Of a stretch of 64,000 nucleotides of DNA, positions 9,328-62,468 are shown piece by piece. The position numbers were made by a program, and so were the translations under genes. Location of the stretch: positions 18,701 through 82,700 of the forward strand of contig DULR01000075.1 in assembly GCA_012840245.1 (NCBI GenBank). Reading direction: 5' to 3'. Source of the stretch: Clostridiaceae bacterium (lineage in GTDB: Bacteria; Bacillota; Clostridia; DSM-8532). The notes under the pieces are model-generated. The model had not been told where the DNA came from, did no database searches, and was given only the letters and a program-made list of their open reading frames with translations. The first letter of the stretch is position 1. The number at the start of each line of letters is the position of its first letter.

Positions 9328-9357
9328 GTATAGGAATTGTTTTCACAATTCCTATAC
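9328..9357 (+). other. Perfect 13-bp hairpin in the flgN leader
   Basis: GTATAGGAATTGT tttc ACAATTCCTATAC. It is followed by the 12-nt palindrome AAAGGATCCTTT (9362-9373). Confidence 0.6.
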
Positions 9358-9417
9358 TTGGAAAGGATCCTTTGGATTCTTTCGCTAATAAATTTATCAG
9401 CCAAGGAGGTGTTTGAA

Positions 9418-15450: not shown

Positions 15451-15519
15451 TCGAACAGTCATTCTGGAATATCTGTGCTAGACTATTTACATCGGATAAA
15501 TGTGAAAAAGCATAAACAG

Positions 15520-15550
15520 AAAGCTTCGGGAAACTGAGGCTTTTTTTATT
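15520..15550 (+). terminator. Weak intrinsic terminator after csrA
   Basis: Short stem (AAAGCTTC/GAGGCTTT with a wobble pair) followed by T7. Confidence 0.45.
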
Positions 15551-15567
15551 TGGAATAAACTACAGGT

Positions 15568-15594
15568 TAAGAAATTCGCTGAGAATACCGATAA
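15568..15594 (+). promoter_or_regulatory. Candidate sigma-D promoter in front of the modification island
   Basis: TAAG-N15-ACCGATAA, about 50 nt upstream of the first island gene. Confidence 0.6.
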
Positions 15595-15642
15595 ATATTA
15601 AAAGAGGTTTTTTCTTTTTTAATAAACCAGGAAGTGAAGACT

Positions 15643-18177
15643 ATGCGCAAATATCATAAGAAACAACTGCTGGATCTGGTACAGACAATCAAAGAAGCAA
15701 ATATCATGATAGAACGGTTTATAAGGAATGAAAACTATGAAAGCGCTACAGGGCTTTTGATAGATTGTCATGAGGCTGCAGTCAATATCGGCAAACGTAT
15801 AGAAGAACTTGAAGGAGAAGGAACTATAACTGTCACATACCTTGAAGAGTATTGTGACCTTTTATATCAGACCGGTTTGGCGGTCAACGAGAACAAAAAT
15901 CTGAAAAAAGAACTGGTTCTGCTTCATAATCAGATCATCAAAATAGAGGACAGCCTGATAAACGACATAAAAGCGGACAAGCTTGAAGTCGTATTTCTTC
16001 CCTATAAAGCATCCATGTGGGATTCTCTTGAATCGATATATCTGGTAGCAAAAAATGATCCTCAGTGTGACGTATATTGTGTGCCGATACCGTATTATGA
16101 ACTGACGCCCGACAGAAAGCTCGGCCAAATGTATTATGAGGGTGCTGATTATTACGATAGCAGTATTGAAGTAACCAACTGGAAGGAATATGACATCGAA
16201 GCACGCCATCCTGATATGATTTTCATTCATTATCCATATGATGATATGGCAGTCAATGCGACAGTTCATCCCGATTTTTACAGTAAAAAACTTAGGCAGT
16301 GCTGCGATTGTCTGGCGTATGTGCCGTACTTTGTGGTTTCCGGCAATACGGTTGCAGAGTACAATGCTTGTTTGCCCGGAGTTTTATATGCTGACTGTGT
16401 GTTTGTCCAGTCAGAGCAAATCAGGCAGTCTTATATCCAGCATTATAACAATTTCGCAAGGGAAAACAAAATGGAACAGGTATGCGGCAGGGGAGAAGAC
16501 AAATTTAAAGCGTTTGGCTCACCCAAATTTGACAAGATTATAAACGATAGAGATGCTCACTATGAATTGCCTGATAACTGGAAAAGGCTTGTTTATAGGG
16601 GCAACGGAGAAAAGAAAAAGATAGTCCTTTACAATACTCATATGTTTGCATGGATAAATGGCGGAGAACAGTATTTCCGTAAAATGCAGATCATATTTGA
16701 AACATTTAGAGACCGTGAAGACGCTGTTTTATGGTGGCGTCCCCATCCAAACACCGAACTTAATTTCCGCACGTTCCGTCCAGACTTGCTTGGGAAATAC
16801 ATGAAAACTGTTGAAAGCTATAAAAACGGAGGCTGGGGCATTTATGATGATACGCCGGACCTGCACAGAGCGATTGCTTTCAGCGATGTGTATTATGGTG
16901 ATGGATCCAGCCTGGTTGAGTTATTCAAGGCAGGGGGAAAGCCAGTATATTATCAGGACATCGATTTTCCGGAACTGCTCGATAATTTAAGGTTCTATGT
17001 AACTAACATATTTGAGACAGGCAATAGCTTATATGCTTTAACATTCAACGGGTACATGTTCAGGTTGGAAGACAATTCATTTAAGTATGAAAGTAAAATT
17101 CCGGCAAGCTATGGATATTCATCAGGCTGGAATTACTATTCGCAGGTCACCGAAGACGACAATATATTCTTTATTCCGCACAACGAGAAGCATATCGCCG
17201 TTTACAATGTAAAAACAAAAGACTGCAGAATGTATGCCCTTGATCTGGACGATGAATATCGGATAACTTTTGCAGGTGGGGACAAGAACTTTTTAGAAGG
17301 GATCCTGTATAAAAACAAGTTATTTCTTGTTCCATGGGGTTATCGCAATATAGTAGCGTTCAATACCAATACGAAAGAAACTGAGCATTGCCTGGATCTG
17401 CGACAGGTGTTTGGAGAGAAAACCAATGCCTTGAGTTATGGCTATGCCTGGCTGAATGAAAGCACAGTTTTGCTGGCAAGCATGCATTCAAACGAGGTGC
17501 TTGAGTTCAACCTCGACACTTATGAATATAAGATCCACAGGATAGGACGAGAAGACCAGTCATTCCATATGATATTCAGGTATGGCGATAATTTTTTCCT
17601 GGTAGGCAGACAGCCATTTATGCTCAGATGGAACTATGAAACCGGAGATACCCATATATACGATAAATTGCCTGCTGATTTCGAGTTAGCGAGAAAACTG
17701 GACTGGGTATTCTATGTAAGAAATATGAAACCGTATGGGAACAAGCTGGTACTGCCCGGCGGATATACAAACATGGTGCTGTTGTTTGATCTTGATACCT
17801 GCCAGTTTGAAAAACTCGATGTTTTTGACAAGCTACTGAAAAGCGTACCGGTAACCGGCAGAAATAAGGATGAACCTTTCGTTACCGGTATCCACATGTC
17901 GGGCAGTTTCATGTACTTTGTTCATAAAAATGAAATCCTGTACAGATATGATTTTGATACTCAAACTATAGAAGAGGTTTGCAGCATTATGCCATTTTTT
18001 TCAGATGAACAGCTGGATAAGCTAAATGGAAGTTTTATCAGAAATATGCTGGAAGGAGAGAACTCACAGGTTATGCCAGAACGTTTTAATAAACTGTATG
18101 ACGGCAAGGCCGGTGAAAGAATTTATAGTTATATAAAGACCAGGCTTTTTCAGAAGCCTGCAGCAGATGTGTATTGA
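15643..18177 (+). CDS. TagF-like (CDP-glycerol glycerophosphotransferase family) enzyme fused to a C-terminal 7-repeat beta-propeller-like domain
   Basis: VFLPYKASMWDSLESI, VLYNTH..., WWRPHPN and DVYYGDGSSLVELF..GGKPV resemble TagF-family GT-B motifs. The C-terminal ~330 aa contains seven ~45-aa repeats. ATG 15643 has a better RBS spacing than GTG 15634. Confidence 0.7.
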   Translation: MRKYHKKQLLDLVQTIKEANIMIERFIRNENYESATGLLIDCHEAAVNIGKRIEELEGEGTITVTYLEEYCDLLYQTGLAVNENKNLKKELVLLHNQIIKIEDSLINDIKADKLEVVFLPYKASMWDSLESIYLVAKNDPQCDVYCVPIPYYELTPDRKLGQMYYEGADYYDSSIEVTNWKEYDIEARHPDMIFIHYPYDDMAVNATVHPDFYSKKLRQCCDCLAYVPYFVVSGNTVAEYNACLPGVLYADCVFVQSEQIRQSYIQHYNNFARENKMEQVCGRGEDKFKAFGSPKFDKIINDRDAHYELPDNWKRLVYRGNGEKKKIVLYNTHMFAWINGGEQYFRKMQIIFETFRDREDAVLWWRPHPNTELNFRTFRPDLLGKYMKTVESYKNGGWGIYDDTPDLHRAIAFSDVYYGDGSSLVELFKAGGKPVYYQDIDFPELLDNLRFYVTNIFETGNSLYALTFNGYMFRLEDNSFKYESKIPASYGYSSGWNYYSQVTEDDNIFFIPHNEKHIAVYNVKTKDCRMYALDLDDEYRITFAGGDKNFLEGILYKNKLFLVPWGYRNIVAFNTNTKETEHCLDLRQVFGEKTNALSYGYAWLNESTVLLASMHSNEVLEFNLDTYEYKIHRIGREDQSFHMIFRYGDNFFLVGRQPFMLRWNYETGDTHIYDKLPADFELARKLDWVFYVRNMKPYGNKLVLPGGYTNMVLLFDLDTCQFEKLDVFDKLLKSVPVTGRNKDEPFVTGIHMSGSFMYFVHKNEILYRYDFDTQTIEEVCSIMPFFSDEQLDKLNGSFIRNMLEGENSQVMPERFNKLYDGKAGERIYSYIKTRLFQKPAADVY

Positions 18178-18240
18178 AAGATACAGTAGCATTTTTCAGG
18201 ATATGATCCTCCATATATTTGATTTGAAAGAAGGGGTAAT

Positions 18241-18966
18241 ATGAACATTGCATTGATACTGGCCGGAGGGCTCGGCCTGCGTATGAACCAGGAAAGTGAA
18301 CCACCGAAACAGTTTTTTGTCTTGGGGGATAAACCGGTGTTGATACATACGCTGGAAAGATTTGAAAGGCATCCTGAAATCGATGCAATTTGTGTCGTAT
18401 GCCTTCAAACATGGGAGAATTATCTTGAGGGCTTAGTTAACCATTTTGGTATTAAAAAGGTACGCTGGATAGTGACTGGCGGTGACTGCAGACAAGCCTC
18501 GGTCTTTAATGGCCTTTGTACCCTGGAAAAAGACTGTTCTCCGGAGGATATAATTATCGTCCATGATGGAGTAAGACCATTTATCACATCAGAAATAATA
18601 AGCCAGAATATAGAAACTGCAATCCGGTATGGAAATGCTATGACAAGCATGCAGTGTACCGATACGCTGATTACATCTCATGACAGAAAAACCGCGGAAT
18701 ATGCCATGGACCGGGATAGCAGCTACTCGGTGCAGACACCACAGACATATAGTCTCGGTTATGGGCTGAAACATTATCGCCGCGCATACGAGATGGGAAA
18801 AACAAGTATGATAAATTGCTGTGAGTTGTTTATTGCACTTGGGGAAAAAGTATACATGGTAAACGGAAGAAAAACAAATGTTAAACTTACGACACGGGAT
18901 GATATAGCTTATCTTAAATTTCTGAATTCAATTTTTCATGACGGAGATGAAGACCATATAGAATAA
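18241..18966 (+). CDS. IspD/TarI-family sugar-phosphate (alditol-phosphate) cytidylyltransferase
   Basis: MNIALILAGGLGLRM....PKQF N-terminus. 241 aa. Confidence 0.85.
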   Translation: MNIALILAGGLGLRMNQESEPPKQFFVLGDKPVLIHTLERFERHPEIDAICVVCLQTWENYLEGLVNHFGIKKVRWIVTGGDCRQASVFNGLCTLEKDCSPEDIIIVHDGVRPFITSEIISQNIETAIRYGNAMTSMQCTDTLITSHDRKTAEYAMDRDSSYSVQTPQTYSLGYGLKHYRRAYEMGKTSMINCCELFIALGEKVYMVNGRKTNVKLTTRDDIAYLKFLNSIFHDGDEDHIE

Positions 18967-18984
18967 AATTGATCGGAGCTGATT

Positions 18985-20034
18985 ATGAAAACCTGTCATA
19001 TCTTTGATGAAGATATCGAATATCTGGCCAGGCTGTCCCTATGGAAAAAACTATCCGGGAAAACGCTTATGATAACCGGAGCAACCGGTATGCTCGGTTC
19101 TTACCTGGCATTTGCTGCGAATAAAGCCAACCTCATTGGAGGCTACGGAATAAGGCTGGTATTGTCAGGCCGTAACAGCCAGAAAGCAAAACAGTTGTTT
19201 GATAATATCGAGTGCAGGATCCTGCTGCAGGACATTCGTGAGCCGCTGGACGTCGACGGGCCGCTTCACTATATAATACATACAGCAGGACCCGTAGGTC
19301 CTGCTGTTTTCGAAAAAAATCCGCTGGAAGTCATCTCAGTCAATGTTGAAGGCACGATGTCACTGCTTCGCAGTGCGATACAGCACGATTGCCTTGGTGT
19401 TGTTTTTGCTTCCACCCACGAGGTTTACGGGAAGGCCGAAGGTGAACAGAAAGAATCATCAATATTGGGTGCGGTCGATCCATATGATCCCCGCTCAAGC
19501 TATATACTGGCGAAACAGACAGCGGAGAATATTTTGGCTTGTTTTTCCAGCACATATGGCTTAAAATCAGCGTCAGCACGTCTGTCACGACTGTACGGCC
19601 CACTGATGAACATGGACAGCGGTCTGTTCATTTGCAGTTTCATTAATGATGCCTTACATAACATGCCTGTGCATGTCAGGGGAGAGCTTAACCAATTGAG
19701 ACCCCTTTGCTATATTGCAGATGCGGCCGAAGCCATGCTGCGAATCCTGCTGAATGCTGACAGAGGCGAGGCTTACAATGTGCAGGGAAAAGAGCTGCCT
19801 ACAATTGGTGACATTGCATTAATGGTCTCTGAAATTGGGAACTGCGGAGTAAAGTTCGATAAACCTGAAACAGGGAATAAACCTGCGACCGGATACTGGC
19901 TGAACACAGACAGGATTGAAAGACTTGACTGGCGGCAGCGTACCGGGCTTTTGGAAGGACTGCGGCGTACAATGAATTTTTTTGCGGGATCGGAGACAGA
20001 AAATGAAGAAAAGGAAAAGGATCAAAGAAATTGA
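18985..20034 (+). CDS. NAD(P)-dependent epimerase/dehydratase-family (extended SDR) enzyme
   Basis: ITGATGMLGSYL glycine motif and an SSYILAK catalytic YxxxK motif. Confidence 0.85.
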   Translation: MKTCHIFDEDIEYLARLSLWKKLSGKTLMITGATGMLGSYLAFAANKANLIGGYGIRLVLSGRNSQKAKQLFDNIECRILLQDIREPLDVDGPLHYIIHTAGPVGPAVFEKNPLEVISVNVEGTMSLLRSAIQHDCLGVVFASTHEVYGKAEGEQKESSILGAVDPYDPRSSYILAKQTAENILACFSSTYGLKSASARLSRLYGPLMNMDSGLFICSFINDALHNMPVHVRGELNQLRPLCYIADAAEAMLRILLNADRGEAYNVQGKELPTIGDIALMVSEIGNCGVKFDKPETGNKPATGYWLNTDRIERLDWRQRTGLLEGLRRTMNFFAGSETENEEKEKDQRN

Positions 20035-20866
20035 ATTTACGCCTGAAATGCTTAGAAGCCTGCAGCTCATCCAGCTTGAGATCCTGGAGGAGCTTAACAG
20101 GATCTGTGTTAAACACGATATCAAATATTCTCTGGACGGGGGTACGTTACTCGGTGCAGTACGCCACGGTGGATTCATACCCTGGGATGACGATATTGAC
20201 GTAATCATGCTGAGAGAAGAGTACGAGAAATTTTTCGAGGTCTGCAAAACCGAACTGGACAAGGAGCGGTTTTTTTTACAGGAACACAGAACAGATCCTT
20301 ATTACAGGGTAGGTTATACAAGGATCAGGCGGAAAAATACAGTTTATGTACGGGCTGGACAGGAGAACATGAAACATGTTACCGGTATCCTGATAGATAT
20401 TTTTGTCCTGGATAATTCTCCGACAACCTTTTTTATGAAATATATACACCGTGCGCTGTGCTTCTTTTTCCGCAAGATTTTATGGTCAGCTACCGGAAAG
20501 ATCGTTTCTGAAAGTTTATTATTACGAGGGATATATGCTGTGCTTTCATTGATACCGGCAAGATTTGCTTTCCGGGGATTTGACGCCCTGGCGAAGTATT
20601 ACAATAAAAAACCCTCTACCCTTGTCAAGCATTATGCCATGACATACCCCATGCCAAAGGTGAACGGGTTCGGAACACCGAGGGATCTGATGGATGATTA
20701 TACATGGATTGAGTTTGAAGGAAAGAGGTTTATGGCGGTGAAAGATTACCATCGCTACCTGACTTTATTGTATGGCGATTATATGAAGCTTCCGCCCAAA
20801 GAAAAGCAAAAACCGCATATTCATCTTTCAGCTTTTGAACCTATCAGGGACGGGACACTTGAATAA
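20003..20866 (+). CDS. LicD-family phosphotransferase
   Basis: LDGGTLLGAVRHGGFIPWDDDIDVIM is the LicD signature. The start at 20003 has GGAGA upstream. Overlaps the SDR gene by 32 nt. Confidence 0.85.
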   Translation: MKKRKRIKEIEFTPEMLRSLQLIQLEILEELNRICVKHDIKYSLDGGTLLGAVRHGGFIPWDDDIDVIMLREEYEKFFEVCKTELDKERFFLQEHRTDPYYRVGYTRIRRKNTVYVRAGQENMKHVTGILIDIFVLDNSPTTFFMKYIHRALCFFFRKILWSATGKIVSESLLLRGIYAVLSLIPARFAFRGFDALAKYYNKKPSTLVKHYAMTYPMPKVNGFGTPRDLMDDYTWIEFEGKRFMAVKDYHRYLTLLYGDYMKLPPKEKQKPHIHLSAFEPIRDGTLE

Positions 20867-20893
20867 AAGAAAGATCGGAGGAGATTCGACAGA

Positions 20894-22198
20894 ATGGATC
20901 TACCATGCAATTCTCTTGTAAGTGTCATAATACCGGTATACAATGTTGAAAAATATCTGCAGCGTTGCATTAATTCGGTAATTAATCAGACTTACACCAA
21001 TATTGAAATAATTCTTGTTGATGATGGTTCAACAGACGCCTGCCCCCAAATATGTGATGAGTATGCCAGAATGGATTCGAGAATAACGGTGATTCACCAC
21101 AGCCATAACCAGGGTTTGTATGCGGCTCGAAATTCAGGCATAGATGTGGCCAGGGGCGAATGGCTTTGCTTCGTTGACAGCGATGACTTTGTTCATCCCC
21201 GATTTGTTGAAGGATTGCTTAGAGCGGCCGTGCGTAATGGTTGCCTGACTGCAAGGTGCAAACGTAAATTTACATACACTGATGAGATAGATATAAATCT
21301 GCCTGAGGAAGAGTATAAGGTGTTTAACTGGTTCGAATATGCAGCATTTTTAGACAGTACCCCGGGCTATGGTATTTATAATGTCTGGTCCAGCATATAT
21401 CACAGATCACTTTTTAAAAATCTCAGGTTTCCGCCATACCGGCATACGGAGGATGCACCGGTAAGTACCCAGATAATATGGCTTGCACAAGATAAAAAGT
21501 TCGCTGTTACAAATCAGACCTTATACTATTATTATCAAAGACATATAAGCATTATGAACGGCCGTGCCAACCTGAATGTCCTTAACAGATATAAAGCTTA
21601 TGATTGGATTTTAGACTTTTGGATCAGCAAAAATGAGTTTGAAATGGCGGATATTTATTTCAAGATGTACTTTACTTATCTTGTGCTTGATTATACCAAT
21701 CTATGCAGGGATTTACCGCAGGATCATCATAAATATTCTCATTTATACAGCCTGATTGAAAAGAATGCTCATAAGGCACAGATGTTGGATTTAAAGGTAA
21801 CGAAAATACCTTCTGTATCCCGTGAAATTTGGGAGCAAATTTCAGATGGACAAGATAAGTTTATTCTCTACAGCTTCAACAACAGAGGCAGGGAGATCAT
21901 GCCATGGCTCATTTATTTTGACGTCGACTTAGTTGAGATTTGGGATAAAGATGCAGATAAGTATGTCGATGAAGGAGAGCTGCCCATTCCTTTGACAAAA
22001 CCTCATGATTCAGTTGAACCCAAGGATAATATGACTGTAATAATCGCAACTGAGGATGAAAAGCAATCTTTAATAATGAAACGGGAATTGAGACAAATGG
22101 GCTACAGCCGGTTCATTTCCTGCGAAAACATTTTTGGAGCCATAAAATATGCAAAATATAAAAAATTCTTGCCTTTTTTAATAAACGACACTATGTAA
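20894..22198 (+). CDS. Family 2 glycosyltransferase with a C-terminal Rossmann-like module
   Basis: VSVIIPVYNVEKYLQRCINS...ILVDDGSTD...FVDSDD. The C-terminal module starts at KFILYSF. Confidence 0.9.
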   Translation: MDLPCNSLVSVIIPVYNVEKYLQRCINSVINQTYTNIEIILVDDGSTDACPQICDEYARMDSRITVIHHSHNQGLYAARNSGIDVARGEWLCFVDSDDFVHPRFVEGLLRAAVRNGCLTARCKRKFTYTDEIDINLPEEEYKVFNWFEYAAFLDSTPGYGIYNVWSSIYHRSLFKNLRFPPYRHTEDAPVSTQIIWLAQDKKFAVTNQTLYYYYQRHISIMNGRANLNVLNRYKAYDWILDFWISKNEFEMADIYFKMYFTYLVLDYTNLCRDLPQDHHKYSHLYSLIEKNAHKAQMLDLKVTKIPSVSREIWEQISDGQDKFILYSFNNRGREIMPWLIYFDVDLVEIWDKDADKYVDEGELPIPLTKPHDSVEPKDNMTVIIATEDEKQSLIMKRELRQMGYSRFISCENIFGAIKYAKYKKFLPFLINDTM

Positions 22199-22223
22199 AA
22201 TATTTTATATTTCGGGAGGCAAT

Positions 22224-23402
22224 ATGATTTTACGAACATGCGGTGTGGATGAGTTTATAAAACGAATAGAAGGTAAGGAACTTGTATGCTTCGGATCAGG
22301 CAGACTGCTTACTGAATTATGTTACGAGTTTAAGGACCATTCGATAGAAAGACATATTACTTATATTGTTGACAACAACTCTACGCTGTGGGGAACCATA
22401 AAACGGATAGGCAATGTGGAAATAGCAATTGAAAAACCAGAAATGCTATATTCGACCGCTACTGAAAATACAGTCGTTTTAATTACATGCGGAGGATTAT
22501 ACGGTCTGGAAGTATTCGAAGATCTAAGCGGCAGGTTTGATTCTATGGACATTGATTGCTATTTTGCAAGATTCATAAGGGGTATTCAGTCTACTATCAC
22601 AGCATATAACGCAGCTAAACCTCCTGAAGATTTTCGGGCCAATCCTGTGCCTGTGATTCCCAAAAAGATACATTATTGCTGGGTTGGAGGCAGCCCGATT
22701 CCTGAAAAAAACATGAAATGTATTGAAAGCTGGAAACGGTTCTGCCCGGACTATGAAATAATCGAATGGAATGAGAGTAATTATGACTTTTCGAAAAACA
22801 GGTACATGAAGGAAGCATATGAAGCCGGCAAATGGGGGTTTGTACCAGATTACGCCAGGCTCGATATCATATACAACCATGGAGGTATATACCTTGATAC
22901 TGATGTTGAGCTAATAAAACCATTGGATGAACTGCTCTACAACAATGCCTACTGTGGGTTTGAGAACATACAGTTGGTCAATCTTGGACTGGGTTTCGGC
23001 GGTATTGCCGGCTTCAGTCTATTTAAGAAAATGCGTGATTCATACAATGATATTTCCTTTATTAATCAAGACGGTTCATTGAACCTGGTTCCTTCTCCGT
23101 TTCTTCAGACTGATTTCTTAACAAACTATGGATTGAAGAAAAATGGCGGTTTTCAGGTAATAGAAGGTCTGTCTGTATATCCTGTTGAGTATTTTGCACC
23201 ATTAAGCCTGAGTACAAGACAGCTTGTAAAAACTGAAAATACATATTCCATACACTGGTTCGACGGTTCATGGCTTGATAAAGCTCAGCGCGAAAGCAGT
23301 GATGTTTACGAAAGTCTGTACCGTCAAGCTCTGATCAATGAATCGGAAATATCCAAAAACACACTTACAATAACAAGAGGTGAATATTTTGTCCGTTTAT
23401 GA
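22224..23402 (+). CDS. DXD-motif sugar-binding glycosyltransferase (GT32/Gly_transf_sug-like) with an N-terminal Rossmann-like module
   Basis: IPKKIHYCWVGG...PDYARLDIIYNHGGIYLDTDVE. The N-terminal module starts at ELVCFGSGRL. Confidence 0.8.
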   Translation: MILRTCGVDEFIKRIEGKELVCFGSGRLLTELCYEFKDHSIERHITYIVDNNSTLWGTIKRIGNVEIAIEKPEMLYSTATENTVVLITCGGLYGLEVFEDLSGRFDSMDIDCYFARFIRGIQSTITAYNAAKPPEDFRANPVPVIPKKIHYCWVGGSPIPEKNMKCIESWKRFCPDYEIIEWNESNYDFSKNRYMKEAYEAGKWGFVPDYARLDIIYNHGGIYLDTDVELIKPLDELLYNNAYCGFENIQLVNLGLGFGGIAGFSLFKKMRDSYNDISFINQDGSLNLVPSPFLQTDFLTNYGLKKNGGFQVIEGLSVYPVEYFAPLSLSTRQLVKTENTYSIHWFDGSWLDKAQRESSDVYESLYRQALINESEISKNTLTITRGEYFVRL

Positions 23403-24720
23403 GGATGTATTAGTAAGTATCATCATACCGGTATATAATGTCGGGGATTATCTCGAACGCTGCATCGATTCCATAAGGCAGCAGACCCATAAAAAAATTG
23501 AGATCATTTTGGTGGATGATGGTTCCACTGATAATAGTCCACGAATTTGTGACTATTATGCTAAAGAGGATTCACGGATAATAGTGATCCACCAGGAAAA
23601 TCGTGGCGCTGGGCCTGCCAGGAATGCCGGTATCGACATTGCACATGGAGAATGGATCTGCTTTGTTGACAGCGATGATTATATAAGTCCGCTTTTTGTT
23701 GAAAGGCTTCTGAAAATAGCAGTTGATAATGATTGCCTAACTGCACAATGCCGATTCAAAAGGGTTCTGGAAGACAGTATGGATGAAAATGAAAAGCTGC
23801 AGCCTGAAATTAAAGTAATGGACTGGAGGAATTATTTTATCTACGTTTACAAAAATATGTGCAGGAATCCGATAGGAAGCTCCGGGCATACGCCATTCGG
23901 CCCTGTGATAAATATTTACCATAAATCCTTGTTCGACAGTATAAGGTTTCCATCTTTGCGGATTTCGGAAGATATAGAGATTATGCCCAGAATAATCTAT
24001 GCTGCTGGTAAAAAAAACATCGCAATAACCGATGAAATACTATATTATTACTTTCAACGACCAGGAAGTTCAACCAGGTCAGAAGCAAATCTTTCCCTTG
24101 TGGACAGGTACTACGCTATAAACTCGGCAGTAAACTTTTTGAGGGAAAAGAAAGAAAACGAAGTATGCAGGCTTTTTAATAAGACGCTTTTTGATTGCAT
24201 GGTGAGAGACTATTTGATTCTTTGTGCTGAATTGCCGGCAGAACACCACAAATATGGTTTCCTGAAAGATGAAATATACAGGTATCTGGGCACTTTCGAG
24301 GGATATTGCAGTGATCTTATTGTTCTTCGGCCTGATGCGAAAAAAATATGGGAGAATGTTTTGCTAAACATAAAGGACTGTGTCATATATGGTTATGGGG
24401 ATTGGGGTAAAGAATTCACTTATTGGTTCAGGTATTTTGAAATCAATATTATTGAGATCTGGGACCAGAAAGCCGAAACCGGCGGTTGTGCGGAAGGAAT
24501 CCCATTCAGGAAAGCCCACGACGGGCTTGAAAAAAACACATGTATCATAGTTGCCATCGCTGACAGGTATGTATCATTGGAAGTAGCCTGCAAACTTCGG
24601 GAACTGGGCTACACCAATATTTATGATTTTACCTTGATTGAATCAGGGTTGAGATATGGAAAATATTCCAGATTTATGCCGTCGATAATAGAGAATTACA
24701 GGAGGTTGTTCAATGAATAA
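23380..24720 (+). CDS. Family 2 glycosyltransferase, paralog of 20894-22198, with a C-terminal Rossmann-like module
   Basis: VSIIIPVYNVGDYLERCIDS...ILVDDGSTD...FVDSDD. The start is uncertain (GTG 23380 or TTG 23389). Overlaps the previous gene. Confidence 0.9.
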   Translation: MNILSVYEDVLVSIIIPVYNVGDYLERCIDSIRQQTHKKIEIILVDDGSTDNSPRICDYYAKEDSRIIVIHQENRGAGPARNAGIDIAHGEWICFVDSDDYISPLFVERLLKIAVDNDCLTAQCRFKRVLEDSMDENEKLQPEIKVMDWRNYFIYVYKNMCRNPIGSSGHTPFGPVINIYHKSLFDSIRFPSLRISEDIEIMPRIIYAAGKKNIAITDEILYYYFQRPGSSTRSEANLSLVDRYYAINSAVNFLREKKENEVCRLFNKTLFDCMVRDYLILCAELPAEHHKYGFLKDEIYRYLGTFEGYCSDLIVLRPDAKKIWENVLLNIKDCVIYGYGDWGKEFTYWFRYFEINIIEIWDQKAETGGCAEGIPFRKAHDGLEKNTCIIVAIADRYVSLEVACKLRELGYTNIYDFTLIESGLRYGKYSRFMPSIIENYRRLFNE

Positions 24721-27079
24721 CCCTTTGGTGTCATGGCTTATGCCAGTATATAACAGTGAGAAATTCCTGCGCAGGGCATTGGACTCTATGCTGAATCAAA
24801 CATACCAGGATTTTGAGATAATAATCGTACTGGAAAACTCCTGTACAGACAAGTCTAAGGAAATTTGCGAGGAATACGCAGCCAGAGATAACAGGATAAA
24901 AATACATTATAAAGTCGGTGGTTTGGGCATCGCCGAATCCCTGAACCAGGGACTGAAGGTTTGCGGAGGTAAATACATAGCGAGGATGGATGCGGATGAT
25001 TACAGCTATCCTGAGCGGCTTGAAAAACAGGTGTCTTATTTGGAAAGTAACCCTGAAGTGGGAATACTTGGTGCAAAAGCCCGGATTATCAATGGACAGC
25101 GTGTATATGATACCTATGAGGATGGAGTTCCTGATAGTGAGGAAATCCGTGTAAGACTATTGTTTGAGGATTGCATCCTGCATCCTACTGTGGTTTTGAG
25201 GGCTGAAATATTCAATAAAGAAGGCTTGGAGTACCCAACAGACAATAAAGCTGAGGATTATGCCCTTTGGGCCAGCTTAATTTCAAAAGTCAAATTCTCG
25301 ATATTGCCGGATGTTCTTCTGGATTACTATATTCATGGAGAAAATGTCTGTTCAGTTAATTTTGACAAAATACGCACTGACAGCGCGAAAGTATCAAGGC
25401 AAGCTATTCACAGAGAGTTGGATATTGATACCTGTAATTACCTAGATAGAGTATTCGGATGGAGAACATATGATCCCATGCCTTCGGATATAAGCGGATT
25501 TCTGTTTGAAAGTTTGGATCTTATAGATACGGTTCGTAGGGCAAACGATGCACAGAAAAAGTTTGATGTCGCGGTCATGGAAAAGGTCCTTGAGAATGAG
25601 TGGAAAAAAGCATTGAACACCATTGCATATTATGGAGAAATAGACTGTTTGAAGCAACCGGTCCGCAAGTTAAACAAAGAGAAAATAGGAAAAGTATTTT
25701 GCAAATTAGAGGAACATATATCAAGTGACAGAAAAAGGAAAGTCATATTATACGGTACAGGCAGGTACAGTAATGCTTTGGTCCAAAACATGGGGGATGA
25801 TGATTATCCATTTGAAATAATCGCAGTTTGTGACTCGGATGCTCGAAAGCAGGGAACAGTCTTTCATGGATTTCAGGTTATTGCTCCGAATCAAATATCA
25901 AGTTACGATTATGATTTTATAAGCATTGCTACTCCCTTGTACGCTGAAGAAATAAAAGATTCCTTGCTGAACAACTATAACGTAAAGCCGGATAAAATCC
26001 TTGATTTGCCTCTCTGCACAATAGCAACACATTACCGAAGAAAGCTGAGCTTAGAAAGATATAAGCATTTGTGCGGTGAGAGAAAAGCTTATCTTTTTTG
26101 TGCGCCTGATTACGGAAACCTCGGAGACCATGCTATAGCCGTTGGGGAACACTATTTTTTCCAAAAAAATTTTGGTATTGATATAGAAGAGGTGCCAATA
26201 AACCGGTTTGATGAAAATATCTCAATTGTAATGGAACATATAAAGCCAGAGGATATCGTTCTTGTCACAGGCGGTGGATTTTTAGGCTCACTATGGGAAC
26301 AAGGGGAATTTCAGGCGAGAAAAGTCGTATCACTGTTTCCTGACAACCCTGTTTTGATATTGCCTCAAACGCTTTACTGGGAGGCTTCGCATGAATGGGA
26401 TATTGAAAAAGCACGAACGCGCCAGGCGTATGAGAACCATAAAAAACTGGTGCTTTGTGCACGGGATGTTGAGACATACCGTATCATGATTGAAGCTTAC
26501 CCGAAATGCAAAGTAATTACTGCCCCAGATATGGTTCTTGCATATGGCTGGAAGGAGTTCATAAACAGGGATACTGAGCGTGAAAGTGCTTTGCTGTGCC
26601 TCAAAACGGATAAAGAATCTATACTTACCGACAGGGATTGGGAGAGACTGAAGGAAATCGCAGCGGAAGCCTGTGGTACTGCTAGCGTCTGCAGTACGAA
26701 CCTTGATGAAATGATATCCGAAAAAAGAAGGGATGTCTTTCTGAGAATGAAACTTGACGAGTTCAGCCGAGCCAGGCTGGTTATAACAGACAGGCTCCAC
26801 GGTTTGCTGTTTTCCGTCATCACGGGTACTCCCTGTGTTGCCATGAATAACTGTAACCATAAATTAAGAGCGACTTTTGAGTGGGTAAAGCATATACCGA
26901 ATCTGCGATTTGCGGATAGTATCGATAAAGTTAAGCACTTGGCGAAAGAAGTTTTATCGGTAGGTCAGGTGGAATATTGCGCATCAGATTTCAGGGATCA
27001 TTTCAAAGAGCTTGAAATGACAGTTGAATTACTAATAGACAATAAGGGTCAGGAAGCAAAAAATGTCAGGAGATACTAA
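24713..27079 (+). CDS. Fusion protein: GT2 glycosyltransferase, Rossmann-like module, polysaccharide pyruvyl transferase domain
   Basis: N-terminus VSWLMPVYNSEKFL...RMDADD (GT2). The middle has KVILYGTGRY. The C-terminus has PDYGNLGDHAI...LVTGGG...ITDRLHG...GTPCV, typical of PS pyruvyl transferases. Confidence 0.85.
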   Translation: MNNPLVSWLMPVYNSEKFLRRALDSMLNQTYQDFEIIIVLENSCTDKSKEICEEYAARDNRIKIHYKVGGLGIAESLNQGLKVCGGKYIARMDADDYSYPERLEKQVSYLESNPEVGILGAKARIINGQRVYDTYEDGVPDSEEIRVRLLFEDCILHPTVVLRAEIFNKEGLEYPTDNKAEDYALWASLISKVKFSILPDVLLDYYIHGENVCSVNFDKIRTDSAKVSRQAIHRELDIDTCNYLDRVFGWRTYDPMPSDISGFLFESLDLIDTVRRANDAQKKFDVAVMEKVLENEWKKALNTIAYYGEIDCLKQPVRKLNKEKIGKVFCKLEEHISSDRKRKVILYGTGRYSNALVQNMGDDDYPFEIIAVCDSDARKQGTVFHGFQVIAPNQISSYDYDFISIATPLYAEEIKDSLLNNYNVKPDKILDLPLCTIATHYRRKLSLERYKHLCGERKAYLFCAPDYGNLGDHAIAVGEHYFFQKNFGIDIEEVPINRFDENISIVMEHIKPEDIVLVTGGGFLGSLWEQGEFQARKVVSLFPDNPVLILPQTLYWEASHEWDIEKARTRQAYENHKKLVLCARDVETYRIMIEAYPKCKVITAPDMVLAYGWKEFINRDTERESALLCLKTDKESILTDRDWERLKEIAAEACGTASVCSTNLDEMISEKRRDVFLRMKLDEFSRARLVITDRLHGLLFSVITGTPCVAMNNCNHKLRATFEWVKHIPNLRFADSIDKVKHLAKEVLSVGQVEYCASDFRDHFKELEMTVELLIDNKGQEAKNVRRY

Positions 27080-27092
27080 TGGGGGATAATTC

Positions 27093-28454
27093 ATGACTAA
27101 ATTTTTTGAGTGTTTAGTTCCAGTTACATCGTGTAATTTGAAATGTGAATATTGTTATGTAATTCAAGAAAAGCGCAGATATAATGAAATAAAAAACCTG
27201 AAATATCCAGTGGAATGGATTGCTAAAGCATTGAGAAAAGAGCGATTAGGAGGCGTCTGCTATTTTAGTCTATGTGGTGAGGGAGAAACCTTATTGCCAG
27301 ATTATATTATTGAACTCACAGAGCAACTGTTAAAGTCAGGACATTATGTAAACATAACTACAAATGGGACTATCTCGCATAGAATCACAGAATTGATTGG
27401 GCTTAGTCCCGATTTGCATAATAGATTACATATTTCCTTTTCATATCATTATGATGAGTTAGTACGGACAAAAAATTTATATAAATTCTGGGATAATGTC
27501 CGAAGAGTAAAAGATAATAATATTTCATTCGTAGTACAGTGTAATTTATGTGATTCATATATCGAGAAAATCGATGAAATTAAATCTGATTGTATCAGTA
27601 ATATTGGTACTTTGCCGCAATTTGTCGCAACACGTGATGAATCTCAGCCGTACTATAAAATATTGACATCAGATTTAAACAAATATATTATGGTTGGTAA
27701 GTCTACAGGTTCTGATTTATTTGATTTTACCATAGACAATATAAATAAAAAGAGGTGCGATTTTTGCTATGCAGGCGCTTGGTCTTATAGACTATTGCTT
27801 GAAAGCGGAGATTTAAAGCGATGCTATGCTGAACCAGCATTCTACAATATATTTCAGGATATTAATGAGCCTATTCCTCAAGAGCCAATAGGATTCAATT
27901 GCAAAAGTGATTTCTGTGTAAACGCAAGCCACTTTTTAACACTGGGAATAATGCCTGATGTTGTCACTCCAACATATGATGAGCTCCGTAAGATGAAAAA
28001 TATAAACAATATCAGCAAAAACATGGATAGTTTTTTCAGGCATAAATTATATGAGGAGAATAAGCAAGTACATCATAAAGTTCAAAACATTTATCAAATC
28101 AGTAAACTATCGGACTATGCTAAATTACTAAGCAGACCGATTATAATTTATGGGGCAGGAAGGCTTGGCAATAATTTGGTGAAGAAGATGAATGAATGTG
28201 GTATAAAATATGAAATTATTTGTGATTCGAATAAAACCAGGCAAGTTAATGGAGTCGTCCCGGTTGAGGTTATGTTGGATAAATTATCTCAGTTTGACAG
28301 TCCTGTAATAGCTGTTGCGATAATGGATGACAAAGTAGTTTCAGAGGTGTTTTACACCCTTGAAAACACCTCTGCTGAGTTATGTACCTATTATACCATT
28401 ATGATGGCGATTAAATATACAAATGGATATGTTCACCCAAAAGCCATATCATGA
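27093..28454 (+). CDS. Radical SAM enzyme with an auxiliary Cys-rich region and a C-terminal Rossmann-like module
   Basis: CNLKCEYCY (CxxxCxxC). Later cysteines are CDFCY...RCY...FNCKSDFC. The C-terminal module starts at IIIYGAGRLG. The gene is markedly AT-rich. Confidence 0.85.
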   Translation: MTKFFECLVPVTSCNLKCEYCYVIQEKRRYNEIKNLKYPVEWIAKALRKERLGGVCYFSLCGEGETLLPDYIIELTEQLLKSGHYVNITTNGTISHRITELIGLSPDLHNRLHISFSYHYDELVRTKNLYKFWDNVRRVKDNNISFVVQCNLCDSYIEKIDEIKSDCISNIGTLPQFVATRDESQPYYKILTSDLNKYIMVGKSTGSDLFDFTIDNINKKRCDFCYAGAWSYRLLLESGDLKRCYAEPAFYNIFQDINEPIPQEPIGFNCKSDFCVNASHFLTLGIMPDVVTPTYDELRKMKNINNISKNMDSFFRHKLYEENKQVHHKVQNIYQISKLSDYAKLLSRPIIIYGAGRLGNNLVKKMNECGIKYEIICDSNKTRQVNGVVPVEVMLDKLSQFDSPVIAVAIMDDKVVSEVFYTLENTSAELCTYYTIMMAIKYTNGYVHPKAIS

Positions 28455-28501
28455 AGAAAGGAAACTAGTTGGAATTAAGAAAAATTAAATATTATTAGGT
28501 A

Positions 28502-29761
28502 TCAGTCATGGGAATTTTTCTCATACTGTTCATAGTAATAATTAGCAAGTACGCTGTTGCCCAGGTCAGCCATTGCTGTATTAAGAAAAACGAGATCAGT
28601 TTTATCTTTTTTATCATATATGCTGTTCAGGAATAATATTATTTCAACCGGCTCCTGATCCTTGATCAAGGCATAGAGTCCTTTGATGGCATCAAAATTG
28701 TGCTTGTTGATTTTCAGGGATTCAAAATAGTTTTCAAGTGCTTTTACAGAGTCTCCCGTCTTTTTGTACATCTCTGCCATATAGTAATAAACATACTCAA
28801 GCCTTGCCGGGAAGTTATTATTCAGCAGCAGCTTAAATTTTTTATTATATTCAAGAGCGTTACGATAGCTTTCAATGGCTGCGATATAGTCACCCTGCTC
28901 TCTTCTTGCGTTGCCTACTGCATACCAGATCTCAGGGTGTGTGGGATAATGGCTCACAGCTTCATTGATGTATTTCTCGATCTCATCGGACGTATATTTT
29001 TCTTTTAACTTAAGCATGTTGTCGATAATGAAAACATAAGGCTGATATGCCATGATTGTTTTATGGAAAGCGGGTTCTTTGAGGGCAAGAAGAGCGTATT
29101 CTATAGCTTCCTCAGAGTTCCCCAGATTATTGTTCATCGAGCTCATATAATAATATGTAAGGTCAGTGATGTTGTTTTTGGCGATCTCTTCCTTCATTAT
29201 CGCAAGATTACGTTTGACCTTTTCGGGCAATATAACAGATGAATATCCGGTATGGTAAATAACTAAGGGGTAATCAGTTATGTTGGCTGCATATAGCGTA
29301 TTTTCCCTATTAAGCGGTTGCTCATGTACAGCACCGTAATAGCGGATCCTGTTATGTCCTCTGAATGTTCGGATAGTCGGATTTTCCGCAATTATTCTTC
29401 CGTTTAAGCCTTCTGTATGGATTATTTTATAAAGAACAGCATCATATGACTTGTTATTTATACTGTTTAATATACGGATCAGATTCCTGGGAGTATTTTC
29501 AGCAAAATACTCATCGGCATCCAGGAATATAATCCAGTCTCCTGTCGCTTTATCCAAGGCATAATTCTTCGCGTTGCTGAAGTTATTGTCCCAATCGTAA
29601 AAATAAACTTTTGCGCCAAGGCTTTCAGCTATTTCAACTGTGTTATCGGTTGAACCGGTATCCACCACGACAATCTCATTTGTGATACTTTTTATGCTTT
29701 CCAGACATCGTCTGATATTTTCGGATTCGTTTTTGGTTATGACACATGCTGATATTTTCAT
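28502..29761 (-). CDS. GT2 glycosyltransferase fused to TPR repeats (GmaR-like architecture)
   Basis: ISACVITKNE...VVVDTGSTD...FLDADE N-terminal GT2. The C-terminal half is TPR-like (EAIEYALLAL..., GDYIAAIESYRNALEYN, GDSVKALENYFESLKIN). ATG 29761 follows AAGGAG. Lies downstream of fliC on the same strand. Confidence 0.85.
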   Translation of the reverse strand: MKISACVITKNESENIRRCLESIKSITNEIVVVDTGSTDNTVEIAESLGAKVYFYDWDNNFSNAKNYALDKATGDWIIFLDADEYFAENTPRNLIRILNSINNKSYDAVLYKIIHTEGLNGRIIAENPTIRTFRGHNRIRYYGAVHEQPLNRENTLYAANITDYPLVIYHTGYSSVILPEKVKRNLAIMKEEIAKNNITDLTYYYMSSMNNNLGNSEEAIEYALLALKEPAFHKTIMAYQPYVFIIDNMLKLKEKYTSDEIEKYINEAVSHYPTHPEIWYAVGNARREQGDYIAAIESYRNALEYNKKFKLLLNNNFPARLEYVYYYMAEMYKKTGDSVKALENYFESLKINKHNFDAIKGLYALIKDQEPVEIILFLNSIYDKKDKTDLVFLNTAMADLGNSVLANYYYEQYEKNSHD

Positions 29762-29923
29762 AGCTTTCTCCTTCACTCTTCGGATAAAAAAAGAAAAAAT
29801 GACACATTAAAAAGCGTCGAATATACAGTCCTTTTGTTTTATTTTATCATATCATATGTTGTAATTAAATAATCACAGGTTATGCTTCGTTTATGAAAAA
29901 TCAGGAGATTAAGAAAAATGGGA

Positions 29924-29959
29924 AAATTTAAGGAACAGCAGTTGCTGTTCCTTAAATTT
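29924..29959. terminator. Perfect 16-bp hairpin terminator after fliC (symmetric, potentially bidirectional)
   Basis: AAATTTAAGGAACAGC agtt GCTGTTCCTTAAATTT. Confidence 0.8.
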
Positions 29960-30822: not shown

Positions 30823-30860
30823 CATCCTCCTTGATATTTTTGGGGAGAATCCTTTCTCCC
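30823..30860 (-). promoter_or_regulatory. Putative CsrA binding sites in the fliC leader
   Basis: On the minus strand, the hairpin GGGAGA-AAGGAT-TCTCCC presents GGA in its loop. A second GGA lies in the SD region ATCAAGGAGGATG. This mirrors the B. subtilis hag BS1/BS2 arrangement. Confidence 0.5.
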
Positions 30861-30951
30861 TGATTTTAATTTTAGTTCCTCAACCGGAACCATGGTTATG
30901 AGCCATTCCAAAACCCTTTGGCGCCATAAGGGGGATAGCTTCACATCCTTT

Positions 30952-30978
30952 ATATCGGTAATATACCACCGAACTTTA
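30952..30978 (-). promoter_or_regulatory. Sigma-D promoter of fliC
   Basis: The minus strand reads TAAA-N16-CCGATAT, a near-consensus sigma-28 promoter. Confidence 0.8.
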
Positions 30979-33610: not shown

Positions 33611-34015
33611 ATGATTGCTTATAACGCCTATAACCAGTATAAGGAGAATTCAATTTTTACCGCCAGTCCGGAAGAACTTACACTTATGCTTTACAATGGA
33701 CTTGTGAAGTTTATAATGCGCGGTATGGACAGCATTGAGAAAAGAGATATCCCCGATGCCAATACAAATATAATAAAGGCACAGAATATCATATCCGAAC
33801 TTATGAATACGCTGGACATGAAGTATGGATTGTCTTCGAGCCTGTATTCCATATATGATTATATGCTGAGAAGGCTTATTGACGCCAATATAGCCAAGGA
33901 TAAGGAAATACTTGAAGAAATCCTCGGCTTTGCAAAGATCCTCAGGGATACATGGGAGCAGGCCATGAAAATATCCAGGCAGCAGAACAGAAGACCTACG
34001 GTCACCAATGTATGA
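33611..34015 (+). CDS. fliS: Flagellin-specific chaperone FliS
   Basis: YNQYKENSIFTASPEELTLMLYNGLVKF...AQNIISEL. 134 aa. Confidence 0.92.
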   Translation: MIAYNAYNQYKENSIFTASPEELTLMLYNGLVKFIMRGMDSIEKRDIPDANTNIIKAQNIISELMNTLDMKYGLSSSLYSIYDYMLRRLIDANIAKDKEILEEILGFAKILRDTWEQAMKISRQQNRRPTVTNV

Positions 34016-34028
34016 TCAGGAGTATGAA

Positions 34029-34508
34029 ATGGAGCCAAAAGAGTATGTCCGCAAACTGAATGATATTTCACAAAAAAAATTGTTGCTGCTGAATGAGATC
34101 CTTCTGTTTGTACGCAGTCAGAATGAGGTAATAAAAGGACAGAGGTTTGAGGAGATGGAACTGCTCATAAGAGAAAAGCAAATGAGAATGGATGCAGTGG
34201 ATAAGCTTGACGTGCAGTTTGCAGCATATTCCTCAAAACTCAGGGAGATGCTCTCCATCAGTTCCTTTGAAGAGCTTCCCGGGTATGACCTCCCCGGAAC
34301 AAAGGAACTCAAGGCTGTGATCGAACGCATCCATCAAAAGCTTAAGGAAATCAAAGTACTGGATGATGAAAATATCAGCCTTGTAAAAACCGAGATGAAA
34401 GATGTCAGGGAGCAGATGAGCAGAACCAGCAACGACAAACGCATTCAGGGAGCATATTACCCTACCCTGAACAGCGGGACATCATATTTCTTTGATGAAA
34501 AAAAATAG
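34029..34508 (+). CDS. Helical protein in the fliT position (FliT/FlgN-like)
   Basis: Position after fliS, coiled-coil composition, and AGGAG 7 nt upstream of ATG 34029. Assignment rests on synteny only. Confidence 0.5.
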   Translation: MEPKEYVRKLNDISQKKLLLLNEILLFVRSQNEVIKGQRFEEMELLIREKQMRMDAVDKLDVQFAAYSSKLREMLSISSFEELPGYDLPGTKELKAVIERIHQKLKEIKVLDDENISLVKTEMKDVREQMSRTSNDKRIQGAYYPTLNSGTSYFFDEKK

Positions 34509-62409: not shown

Positions 62410-62468
62410 AATCTAATTGGAAATAACCGATATAAATATTAGTTGTTAATTCTACTAATGATGATGGA

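Follow-up and report, generated by a model that had tools for sequence, protein, structure and literature searches.

Introduction

The glycans on flagellin affect motility and the stability of the filament, as well as surface charge and recognition by phages and the immune system. Here we report on a 14-kb island of ten open reading frames (ORFs; g1-g10, Table 1) between csrA and fliC in a 64-kb stretch of contig DULR01000075.1 (64,000 nucleotides in all, hereafter the window), which derives from the metagenome-assembled genome (MAG) of an uncultured Clostridiaceae bacterium. Gene content and genomic context suggest, with a probability that we put at about 0.68, a flagellar glycosylation island whose soluble cytoplasmic enzymes would build a complex O-linked flagellin glycan. 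That alditol-phosphate forms part of this glycan has, judged from the predicted enzyme families, an even chance of being correct.

Among the closest described systems is that of Clostridioides difficile 630, where fliC is followed by the gene for the glycosyltransferase CD0240 and then by ftaABCD (CD0241-CD0244); FtaB (CD0242) is the predicted cytidylyltransferase of the Type A pathway, and the TagF-like FtaD (CD0244) transfers, in vitro, phospho-N-methylthreonine from cytidine diphosphate (CDP)-N-methylthreonine to a FliC peptide carrying O-linked N-acetylglucosamine (O-GlcNAc) (PMC10714395; bioRxiv 10.64898/2026.02.12.704994). As in the Type A pathway, the island genes adjoin fliC and the predicted enzymes are cytoplasmic; an initiating glycosyltransferase would act on flagellin Ser/Thr residues, a cytidylyltransferase would provide a CDP-alcohol and a TagF-like enzyme would transfer it to a flagellin-linked sugar to give a phosphodiester, g1 being likened to FtaD by the shared TagF-like label. 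The C. difficile donor CDP-N-methylthreonine involves a phosphoserine-phosphatase-like enzyme, a cytidylyltransferase that has been compared to the cytidine triphosphate (CTP):phosphocholine enzyme and a methyltransferase, whereas the island cytidylyltransferase is of the TarI/IspD type and is paired with a short-chain dehydrogenase/reductase (SDR), implying a CDP-alditol. Moreover, unlike the C. difficile system, the island adds a LicD phosphotransferase and a radical SAM enzyme as well as a pyruvyl transferase and four more glycosyltransferase domains, and its TagF-like protein bears a beta-propeller.

In a 2026 survey of Clostridium flagellar islands the presence of a GT2 domain together with tetratricopeptide (TPR) repeats was the criterion for flagellin glycosyltransferases, and the islands encode pseudaminic (Pse) or legionaminic (Leg) acid synthesis with Maf, or pathways for sugars activated with deoxythymidine diphosphate (dTDP), CDP or guanosine diphosphate (GDP); none of those described has genes for a CDP-alditol, LicD/TagF-like enzymes, a pyruvyl transferase or a radical SAM enzyme (PMC13317340). 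Our island resembles them in being a variable cassette in a late flagellar locus, with a GT2-TPR gene and strain-variable content (PMC13317340). Its ten proteins gave no match to Pse/Leg biosynthesis or Maf families in Pfam or NCBIfam, as had been noted in an initial annotation made from the sequence of the window. That annotation had also set the island apart from the well-described flagellin glycosylation routes, which stands with respect to Pse, Leg and Maf, but not with respect to the combined logic of GT2-TPR protein, cytidylyltransferase and TagF-like enzyme, which matches C. difficile Type A.

Known ribitol-phosphate pathways involve TarI/TarJ, TarK/TarL and Bcs1, and AbpA/AbpB serve the pneumococcal CDP-arabinitol pathway. 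With such teichoic acid and capsule pathways the island has in common a TarI-like enzyme, a reductase and phosphotransferases of the TagF and LicD types, but it lacks the TagO/TagA/TagB priming, the TagGH or Wzx exporter and the LCP ligase of the wall teichoic acid pathway. In contrast to the TarJ pathways its reductase is an extended SDR, and the acceptor would be a protein-linked glycan. There is also an analogy, of logic only, with the O-mannosyl glycan of alpha-dystroglycan, where an IspD-family CDP-ribitol synthase (ISPD) works together with LicD-superfamily phosphotransferases (fukutin and fukutin-related protein, FKRP) to introduce ribitol-phosphate; that glycan is made in the Golgi lumen rather than in a bacterial cytoplasm and on another acceptor, and tandem ribitol-phosphate finds no support in the island. 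TagF, TarL, fukutin and FKRP have been grouped as motif-less CDP-alcohol phosphotransferases (bioRxiv 10.64898/2026.02.12.704994). While the general kind of system is known, the combination of TarI, SDR, LicD, TagF-like, pyruvyl transferase and radical SAM proteins is new, being absent from the described islands. Literature searches for ribitol-phosphate, LicD or teichoic acid chemistry on flagellin gave nothing relevant, and an anionic flagellin glycan with polyol-phosphate and pyruvate is not described in the literature searched.

Results

Association of the island with flagellin genes

Nine of the ten genes (g1-g9) lie on the + strand, and g10 lies on the - strand, co-directional with fliC and convergent with the others; intergenic gaps in the island are at most 63 nucleotides and there are three overlaps (g3/g4, g6/g7 and g7/g8). 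The ten tightly packed and partly overlapping genes between csrA and fliC that the initial annotation described are present, but its single gene array has to be divided, as g10 is located downstream of the fliC terminator on the - strand and is not part of the + strand operon.

Of the protein clusters scored as candidates, over 4,100 fell in the g1 family at E ≤ 0.001, and 588 loci were confirmed in a collection of species-representative genomes; the neighbourhood counts reported here refer to the best 80 of these 588 loci. Within 10 kb of the g1 homologue, a flagellin gene is present in 19 of the 80 loci and a flagellar gene of any kind in 22, and among loci with at least 9 kb of sequence on both sides the fraction with flagellar genes within 10 kb is 13/35. 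A random 20-kb neighbourhood would rarely hold a flagellin gene. Furthermore, there is a recurring gene order, i.e. fliC (often in several copies), a GT2-TPR gene, an SDR and/or TarI gene and the g1 homologue, and this was found in Sporomusaceae (locus L008), Cohnella (L021, L029, L033), Paenibacillus (L024), Clostridium (L059), Lachnospiraceae (L041, L055, L061, L062) and Oscillospiraceae (L010, L031), and in reversed form in a Desulfatiglans MAG (L052). Whether the island co-occurs with fliC in related genomes had been proposed as a check on the initial annotation; the order is kept in several families.

Flagellar proteins other than, or besides, the filament flagellin could also be the acceptors, namely FlgL, the two FlgK paralogues and FliD. 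The locus encodes an extra FlgK with a von Willebrand factor A (VWA) domain and a flagellin-like FlgL, and the TPR and propeller domains of the island proteins could recognise several substrates; the conserved adjacency is nevertheless to fliC itself, in at least 14 loci, nothing observed singles out another protein, and we find such acceptors quite improbable.

Absence of membrane proteins

In none of the ten proteins does the Kyte-Doolittle hydropathy reach 1.6 over any window of 19 residues, and we therefore conclude that exporters, flippases and polyprenyl-phosphate priming enzymes are absent from the island, in agreement with the earlier statement that Wzx/Wzy/ABC exporters and undecaprenyl-phosphate priming enzymes are missing. 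The same applies to homologous loci: the 22 flagellum-linked loci (421 kb) lack any ORF with at least six hydrophobic segments, while 13 of the other 58 g1-family loci contain one. Together, the conserved flagellar order and the lack of polytopic membrane proteins in these 22 loci support cytoplasmic glycosylation of flagellin. That the acceptor is cytoplasmic, i.e. flagellin before its export, had been suggested in the initial annotation and now has the support, by genomic inference, of gene order, sigma-D motifs (see below) and absence of membrane proteins.

The enzyme set could instead assemble or decorate a glycopolymer of the envelope on a lipid carrier, for example wall teichoic acid or a secondary cell-wall polymer that is pyruvylated, with a TagO-like GT4 enzyme and exporters encoded elsewhere, the flagellar position being incidental because the flagellar locus is a recombination hotspot. 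TarI, SDR, LicD, TagF-like and CsaB-like proteins are indeed the set classically used to make teichoic acids, capsules and secondary cell-wall polymers, and genes for a TagO-like GT4 (38565-39800) and, next to it, the UDP-GlcNAc 2-epimerase MnaA (UDP, uridine diphosphate) are located 9 kb away. Likewise, g9 and the pyruvyl transferase have homologues in some loci with genes for priming enzymes (Bac_transf), ABC transporters (ABC2_membrane/ABC_tran) and flippases (Polysacc_synt), and a propeller-less g1 homologue is present in a non-flagellar Anaerolineaceae cluster. Yet the island itself is devoid of membrane protein, flippase, ABC transporter, LCP ligase and priming enzyme genes, and no polytopic membrane ORF appears in any of the flagellum-linked homologous loci. 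A sigma-D-type promoter is present, the GT2-TPR gene comes straight after fliC in the manner of known flagellin systems (PMC13317340), and the TagO-like gene belongs to a upp/mnaA housekeeping block, the context that the initial annotation had given it, with flaG, fliD and further genes between it and the island. On balance we regard a cell-wall polymer as unlikely.

Promoter motifs and the fliC leader

The sigma-28-like (sigma-D-like) promoter predicted in the initial annotation is present ahead of g1, where it directly follows the csrA terminator hairpin (Table 1). The motif TAAR-N16-CCGATA occurs in three copies in the window versus 0.21 expected, and one of these is positioned at the expected distance from fliC. 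Among the homologous loci, sigma-D-like motifs are present no more than 220 nucleotides 5' of g1, TarI or SDR homologues in L024, L046, L057 (twice) and L067, and 5' of fliC in six further cases.

The third motif in the window (TAAA-N16-CCGATA; 62407-62432, + strand) is located 5' of an ORF of 267 amino acids (aa; 62469-63272) that has no Pfam match, and a gene for an N-acetylmuramoyl-L-alanine amidase (61693-62409) directly precedes it. By eye, the fliC leader has a hairpin (GGGAGAA-AGGA-TTCTCCC; 30840-30863, - strand) with AGGA in the loop and a second GGA in the Shine-Dalgarno sequence AAGGAGGA. This resembles the two CsrA binding sites of the Bacillus subtilis hag leader and fits with the adjacent fliW-csrA genes.

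Synthesis of the predicted donor and the LicD protein

The profile searches proposed along with the initial annotation were run with Pfam and NCBIfam and gave the expected families for nine of the proteins (IspD/TarI-like, SDR, LicD, GT2, DXD, pyruvyl transferase, radical SAM and GT2-TPR); for g1 the TagF-like assignment was not recovered by direct match.

Protein g2 matches PF01128 with 127 bits and the NCBIfam model for ribitol-5-phosphate cytidylyltransferase (NF001183) with 183 bits, to be compared with a cut-off of 166, and its best matches in the PDB are the TarI structures 4jis, 6xhp and 2vsh (from B. subtilis, Staphylococcus aureus and Streptococcus pneumoniae). A role as housekeeping IspD was ruled out since the TarI model scored above its cut-off, the IspD equivalog models remained below theirs and TarI structures were the closest. 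We propose that g2 makes the CDP-activated alditol or ketose-phosphate donor.

For g3, PF01370 (Epimerase) gave 136 bits, and the protein is an extended SDR with closest PDB relatives among the nucleotide-sugar SDRs (UDP-glucuronate decarboxylase, E 1e-26). In 24 of 84 loci (the 80 genome loci and four contigs with the same island), genes for TarI and g1 homologues have an SDR gene of this type as a neighbour. Since it belongs to the extended SDRs of the epimerase/dehydratase family, g3 was rejected as a zinc-dependent medium-chain dehydrogenase of the TarJ type; weak SDR similarity to LegB, PseB and FnlA in NCBIfam was below threshold. Protein g3 is proposed to be an NAD(P)H-dependent reductase that converts CDP-ketose to CDP-alditol or ketose-phosphate to alditol-phosphate, and it may be a functional parallel of the SDR reductases of Bcs1 or AbpB. 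Its resemblance to nucleotide-sugar SDRs suggests that the reduction may take place on CDP-ketose.

The LicD profile (PF04991) covers g4 in full (profile positions 1-227 of 227) with 143.5 bits versus a cut-off of 22.6. Its sole PDB match is the CDP-ribitol transferase FKRP (E 9e-7), and g4 is proposed as the second predicted CDP-alcohol phosphotransferase of the island.

The TagF-related propeller protein g1

Protein g1 itself has no sequence match in Pfam, NCBIfam or the PDB (PF04464, the Glyphos_transf domain of the TagF family, is absent even at E ≤ 10), and a PDB search with the g1-family profile gave no match, TagF included. The relation to TagF, claimed in the initial annotation, emerges through the homologues: 13 of 28 aligned g1 homologues match PF04464 (best E 2.5e-9), five homologues scanned singly all score above the PF04464 cut-off of 22.1 bits, and the matching region corresponds to g1 residues ~250-430. 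In addition, a propeller-less homologue of 443 aa from Anaerolineaceae (L086), which is 41% identical to g1, carries PF04464. An alignment (hhalign) of the g1 family with a PF04464 protein of L085 covered only the C-terminal '...YYGDGSS', with a probability of 1.6%, and no further canonical TagF sequences were found among the fetched loci.

AlphaFold (AF2) models of g1 have a predicted local distance difference test (pLDDT) score of 87 at full length and 91 for residues 1-455, and consist of a four-helix bundle (1-107), a GT-B part with two Rossmann-like domains (~114-450) and a beta-propeller (~450-785). A Foldseek search with the full-length model was dominated by WD40 and Kelch propellers (E down to 4e-14), and a separate N-terminal model was therefore made. 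This matched GT-B enzymes with UDP-GlcNAc 2-epimerases at the top (template modelling score, TM, ~0.5) and no TagF structure among the top 50 matches, so the fold alone is no proof of TagF membership. Across the family the motif WRPHP (g1 residues 365-369) with His368 is invariant and His209 is nearly so. By transitive homology g1 is TagF-related, with a predicted GT-B fold, rather than a demonstrated member of the TagF family, and we propose it as a phosphotransferase that would supply the flagellin glycan with alditol-phosphate. Its propeller would probably serve to dock the glycoprotein substrate, a candidate role suggested by comparison with the TPR part of g10.

Glycosyltransferases

Proteins g5 and g7 match PF00535 (GT2) with 150 and 138 bits, respectively, and are full-length paralogues (41% identity over 437 aa), and g6 matches PF04488 (Gly_transf_sug) with 65 bits. 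The C-terminal extensions of g5 and g7 (~200 aa each) and the N-terminal domain of g6 (~140 aa) have no family assignment; the exact 392-aa product of g6 is present in protein records.

Protein g10 combines PF00535 (GT2; 94 bits) with TPR families, and a model for SunS-like peptide glycosyltransferases gives 109 bits, which is under its cut-off. The gene is positioned 200 nucleotides downstream of fliC, and in at least 14 other loci a GT2-TPR gene directly follows fliC. We propose g10 as the initiating flagellin O-glycosyltransferase. The central segment of the flagellin is short and rich in Ser/Thr (AVSTSGTSPINLSTQASAN).

A module of pyruvyl transferase and radical SAM enzyme

Protein g8 has a GT2 domain (residues 1-230; PF00535, 117 bits), a Rossmann-like C2185-like_N region (residues ~340-420; PF22674, 22 bits, E 2e-4, which is below the cut-off of 27) and a full-length PS_pyruv_trans domain (residues 469-714; PF04230, 89 bits versus a cut-off of 25.3), and also gives a CsaB-like match in NCBIfam. 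The radical SAM domain of g9 (PF04055) scores 39.9 bits versus a cut-off of 29.5 and has the motif C14-x3-C18-x2-C21 (CxxxCxxC), and the C-terminus is a C2185-like Rossmann domain. Four further Cys residues (225, 244, 270 and 275) fall in conserved alignment columns, which suggests that they hold an auxiliary Fe-S cluster. No NCBIfam subfamily reaches its cut-off for g9 and no PDB structure is closer than E 0.01.

The g9 family gave 471 matches at E ≤ 0.001, and at least four of the homologues are PF04230-PF04055 fusions. In 22 of 31 metagenome loci of this family (L096-L126) a pyruvyl transferase homologue is encoded within 2.5 kb of the g9 homologue, in 20 of these within 600 nucleotides; the two genes overlap or are close in L087, L088 and L089 and are adjacent in L036. 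The pair is thus a conserved, uncharacterised two-enzyme module, as judged from gene fusion and proximity, and literature searches on pyruvyl transferases together with radical SAM enzymes gave nothing relevant. A flagellin gene is absent from all 31 metagenome loci. As most of the loci with this pair are non-flagellar glycan loci, we regard it as a glycan-tailoring module of general use that the flagellar island has recruited.

The C2185-like_N domain is common to g8 (residues 342-406; 25736-25930) and g9 (residues 348-409; 28134-28319), with 34% identity (E 9e-6), and also occurs on a GT1 enzyme and a methyltransferase in L086 (7377-9912); a similar GxGxxG-type motif in the N-terminus of g6 was seen by eye only. 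Tailoring enzymes may share this domain as a module for docking or oligomerisation. The L086 cluster (Anaerolineaceae MAG SHOH01000041.1) encodes two IspD proteins, the propeller-less g1 homologue, Stealth, GT2, C2185-like_N fusions, an SDR and a g9 homologue that is 60% identical, and no flagellar gene is visible within its 13.7 kb. It resembles the island in these respects, and the enzyme set hence also exists outside flagellar loci.

Recombination and sequence variation

In L001, L002 and L003 the flanking flagellar genes are ~80% identical (DNA) to the window, while identity is ~100% from ~15516, at the csrA terminator, to ~21000. L090 begins at 17086, short of the left flank, and is ~100% identical up to ~21000; L090 and its relatives (L090-L095) are ~100% identical again from ~26700 through g9 and g10 into fliC (to 30470), whereas the central g5-g8 block is only 60-95% identical. 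This mosaic identity indicates a very recent exchange of parts of the cassette, fliC among them, between genomes distinct at the species level, and such exchange is typical of surface-structure islands under diversifying selection. The left breakpoint coincides with the csrA terminator. There are no notable direct or inverted repeats flanking the island and no mobile-element genes at its borders, and no Rfam element was found within it.

Recent recombination between species, together with the lower guanine-plus-cytosine (GC) content of the island (~0.40 versus ~0.45 in the flanks), would also be compatible with a recently acquired cassette that is a poorly expressed or decaying passenger. We judge this very improbable given that all ten ORFs are intact and tightly coupled with a promoter motif ahead of them, and that near-identical full copies of the island are present in at least six metagenome samples, which argues for selection.

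Other features of the window

The 5' neighbours of the island encode FlgK, FlgL, FliW and CsrA, and the upstream gene order is a recD2-like helicase gene, a comF-like gene, the flgM region, flgN, flgK (684 aa), flgK (555 aa), flgL, fliW and csrA. Beyond the island come fliC (- strand), flaG and fliD, and then another FlgN-like gene. The 684-aa FlgK (9940-11994) has the VWA domain inserted between its D1 and C-terminal rod domains and is as such an unusual hook-filament junction protein; the ordinary 555-aa FlgK is encoded next to it (12010-13677). The second FlgN-like chaperone gene (34008-34508) is located 3' of fliD, and the first flgN at 9337-9924. Finally, a SAM riboswitch (RF00162, 94.7 bits; 2406-2512, + strand) lies upstream of a gene for S-adenosylmethionine synthetase (2700-3890).

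Table 1. Coordinates in the window of the island genes and of the associated expression signals (genes after refinement of start codons)
Feature	Position	Strand	Basis or remark
csrA terminator-like hairpin	15518..15545	+	terminator scan; marks left boundary of the island and left recombination breakpoint
sigma-D (sigma-28)-like promoter in front of g1-g9, TAAG-N15-ACCGATAA	15568..15594	+	sequence read
g1, TagF-related GT-B and beta-propeller protein, 844 aa	15643..18177	+	
g2, TarI-like (IspD-family) cytidylyltransferase	18241..18966	+	
g3, extended SDR	18985..20034	+	
g4, LicD-family phosphotransferase	20003..20866	+	
g5, GT2 glycosyltransferase	20894..22198	+	
g6, DXD (Gly_transf_sug, GT32-like) glycosyltransferase	22224..23402	+	
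g7, GT2 glycosyltransferase	23380..24720	+	start codon 23380 or 23389; gene callers give 443 aa
g8, GT2, C2185-like_N and polysaccharide pyruvyl transferase	24713..27079	+	
g9, radical SAM enzyme	27093..28454	+	
g10, GT2 and TPR	28502..29761	-	
fliC terminator-like hairpin, between fliC and g10	29924..29959	-	terminator scan; 16-pair stem followed by T run
fliC, flagellin, 279 aa	29978..30817	-	Flagellin_N 169 bits, Flagellin_C 111 bits
sigma-D-like promoter of fliC, TAAA-N16-CCGATAT	30953..30978	-	motif search and sequence read; expected distance from fliC

Discussion

Several observations weigh against a flagellar glycosylation island. Every enzyme family in the island also serves cell-wall or capsule pathways, 58 of the 80 g1-family loci have no flagellar gene within 10 kb, and the g9/pyruvyl transferase pair is mostly located in non-flagellar loci with flippases or ABC transporters. 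Protein g1 fails the direct Pfam test and Foldseek places UDP-GlcNAc 2-epimerases above any TagF, and g10 sits behind a terminator-like hairpin, so that its co-expression with fliC is assumed. Also, teichoic acid synthesis itself employs TagF-like, LicD and GT2 enzymes that are soluble or peripheral, and missing membrane segments are therefore no proof of a cytoplasmic acceptor.

For the flagellar glycosylation island that we nevertheless favour, we infer the acceptor, the order of the steps and the identity of the polyol from the predicted families and their genomic context, and suggest the following route. Late-flagellar (sigma-D-type) promoters would drive g1-g9 from 15568, and fliC followed by g10 from 30978. 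The TPR part of g10 would recognise flagellin and the first sugar would be attached to Ser/Thr of the central segment, after which g5, g7, the N-terminal GT2 domain of g8 and the DXD enzyme g6 could extend the chain. In parallel, g2 and g3 would make a CDP-alditol, i.e. CDP-ribitol or a close analogue such as CDP-arabinitol, from which the LicD protein g4 and the TagF-related g1, two unrelated phosphotransferases, would attach alditol-phosphate via phosphodiester bonds. The pyruvyl transferase domain of g8 may then add a group derived from phosphoenolpyruvate (PEP), to be remodelled by its partner g9, and glycosylation would precede export through the flagellar type III system.

Extending this beyond the window, we suggest tentatively, and with the odds against it, that the flagellins of the many Bacillota with the fliC/GT2-TPR/TarI/SDR/TagF-propeller module carry a teichoic-acid-like alditol-phosphate unit or short chain, added in the cytoplasm by two non-homologous phosphotransferases, and that the pyruvyl transferase/radical SAM pair carries out an undescribed radical remodelling of the PEP-derived substituent.

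The module is not confined to one MAG, as over 4,000 protein clusters and no fewer than 588 loci at species level carry the TagF-propeller protein, and with the cultured strains Cohnella lubricantis DSM 103658 (L021), Paenibacillus sacheonensis DSM 23054 (L024) and Cohnella endophytica M2MS4P-1 (L029) among its carriers the prediction is testable. The TagF-propeller protein of the g1 family is itself widespread and unstudied, and the radical SAM family coupled to polysaccharide pyruvyl transferases provides a lead to new carbohydrate chemistry. If the prediction is true, the paradigm set by FtaD, namely transfer of a CDP-activated group to a sugar on flagellin, would extend from an amino acid to alditols, and the island would represent a bacterial counterpart of the ribitol-phosphate step carried out by ISPD, fukutin and FKRP on alpha-dystroglycan.

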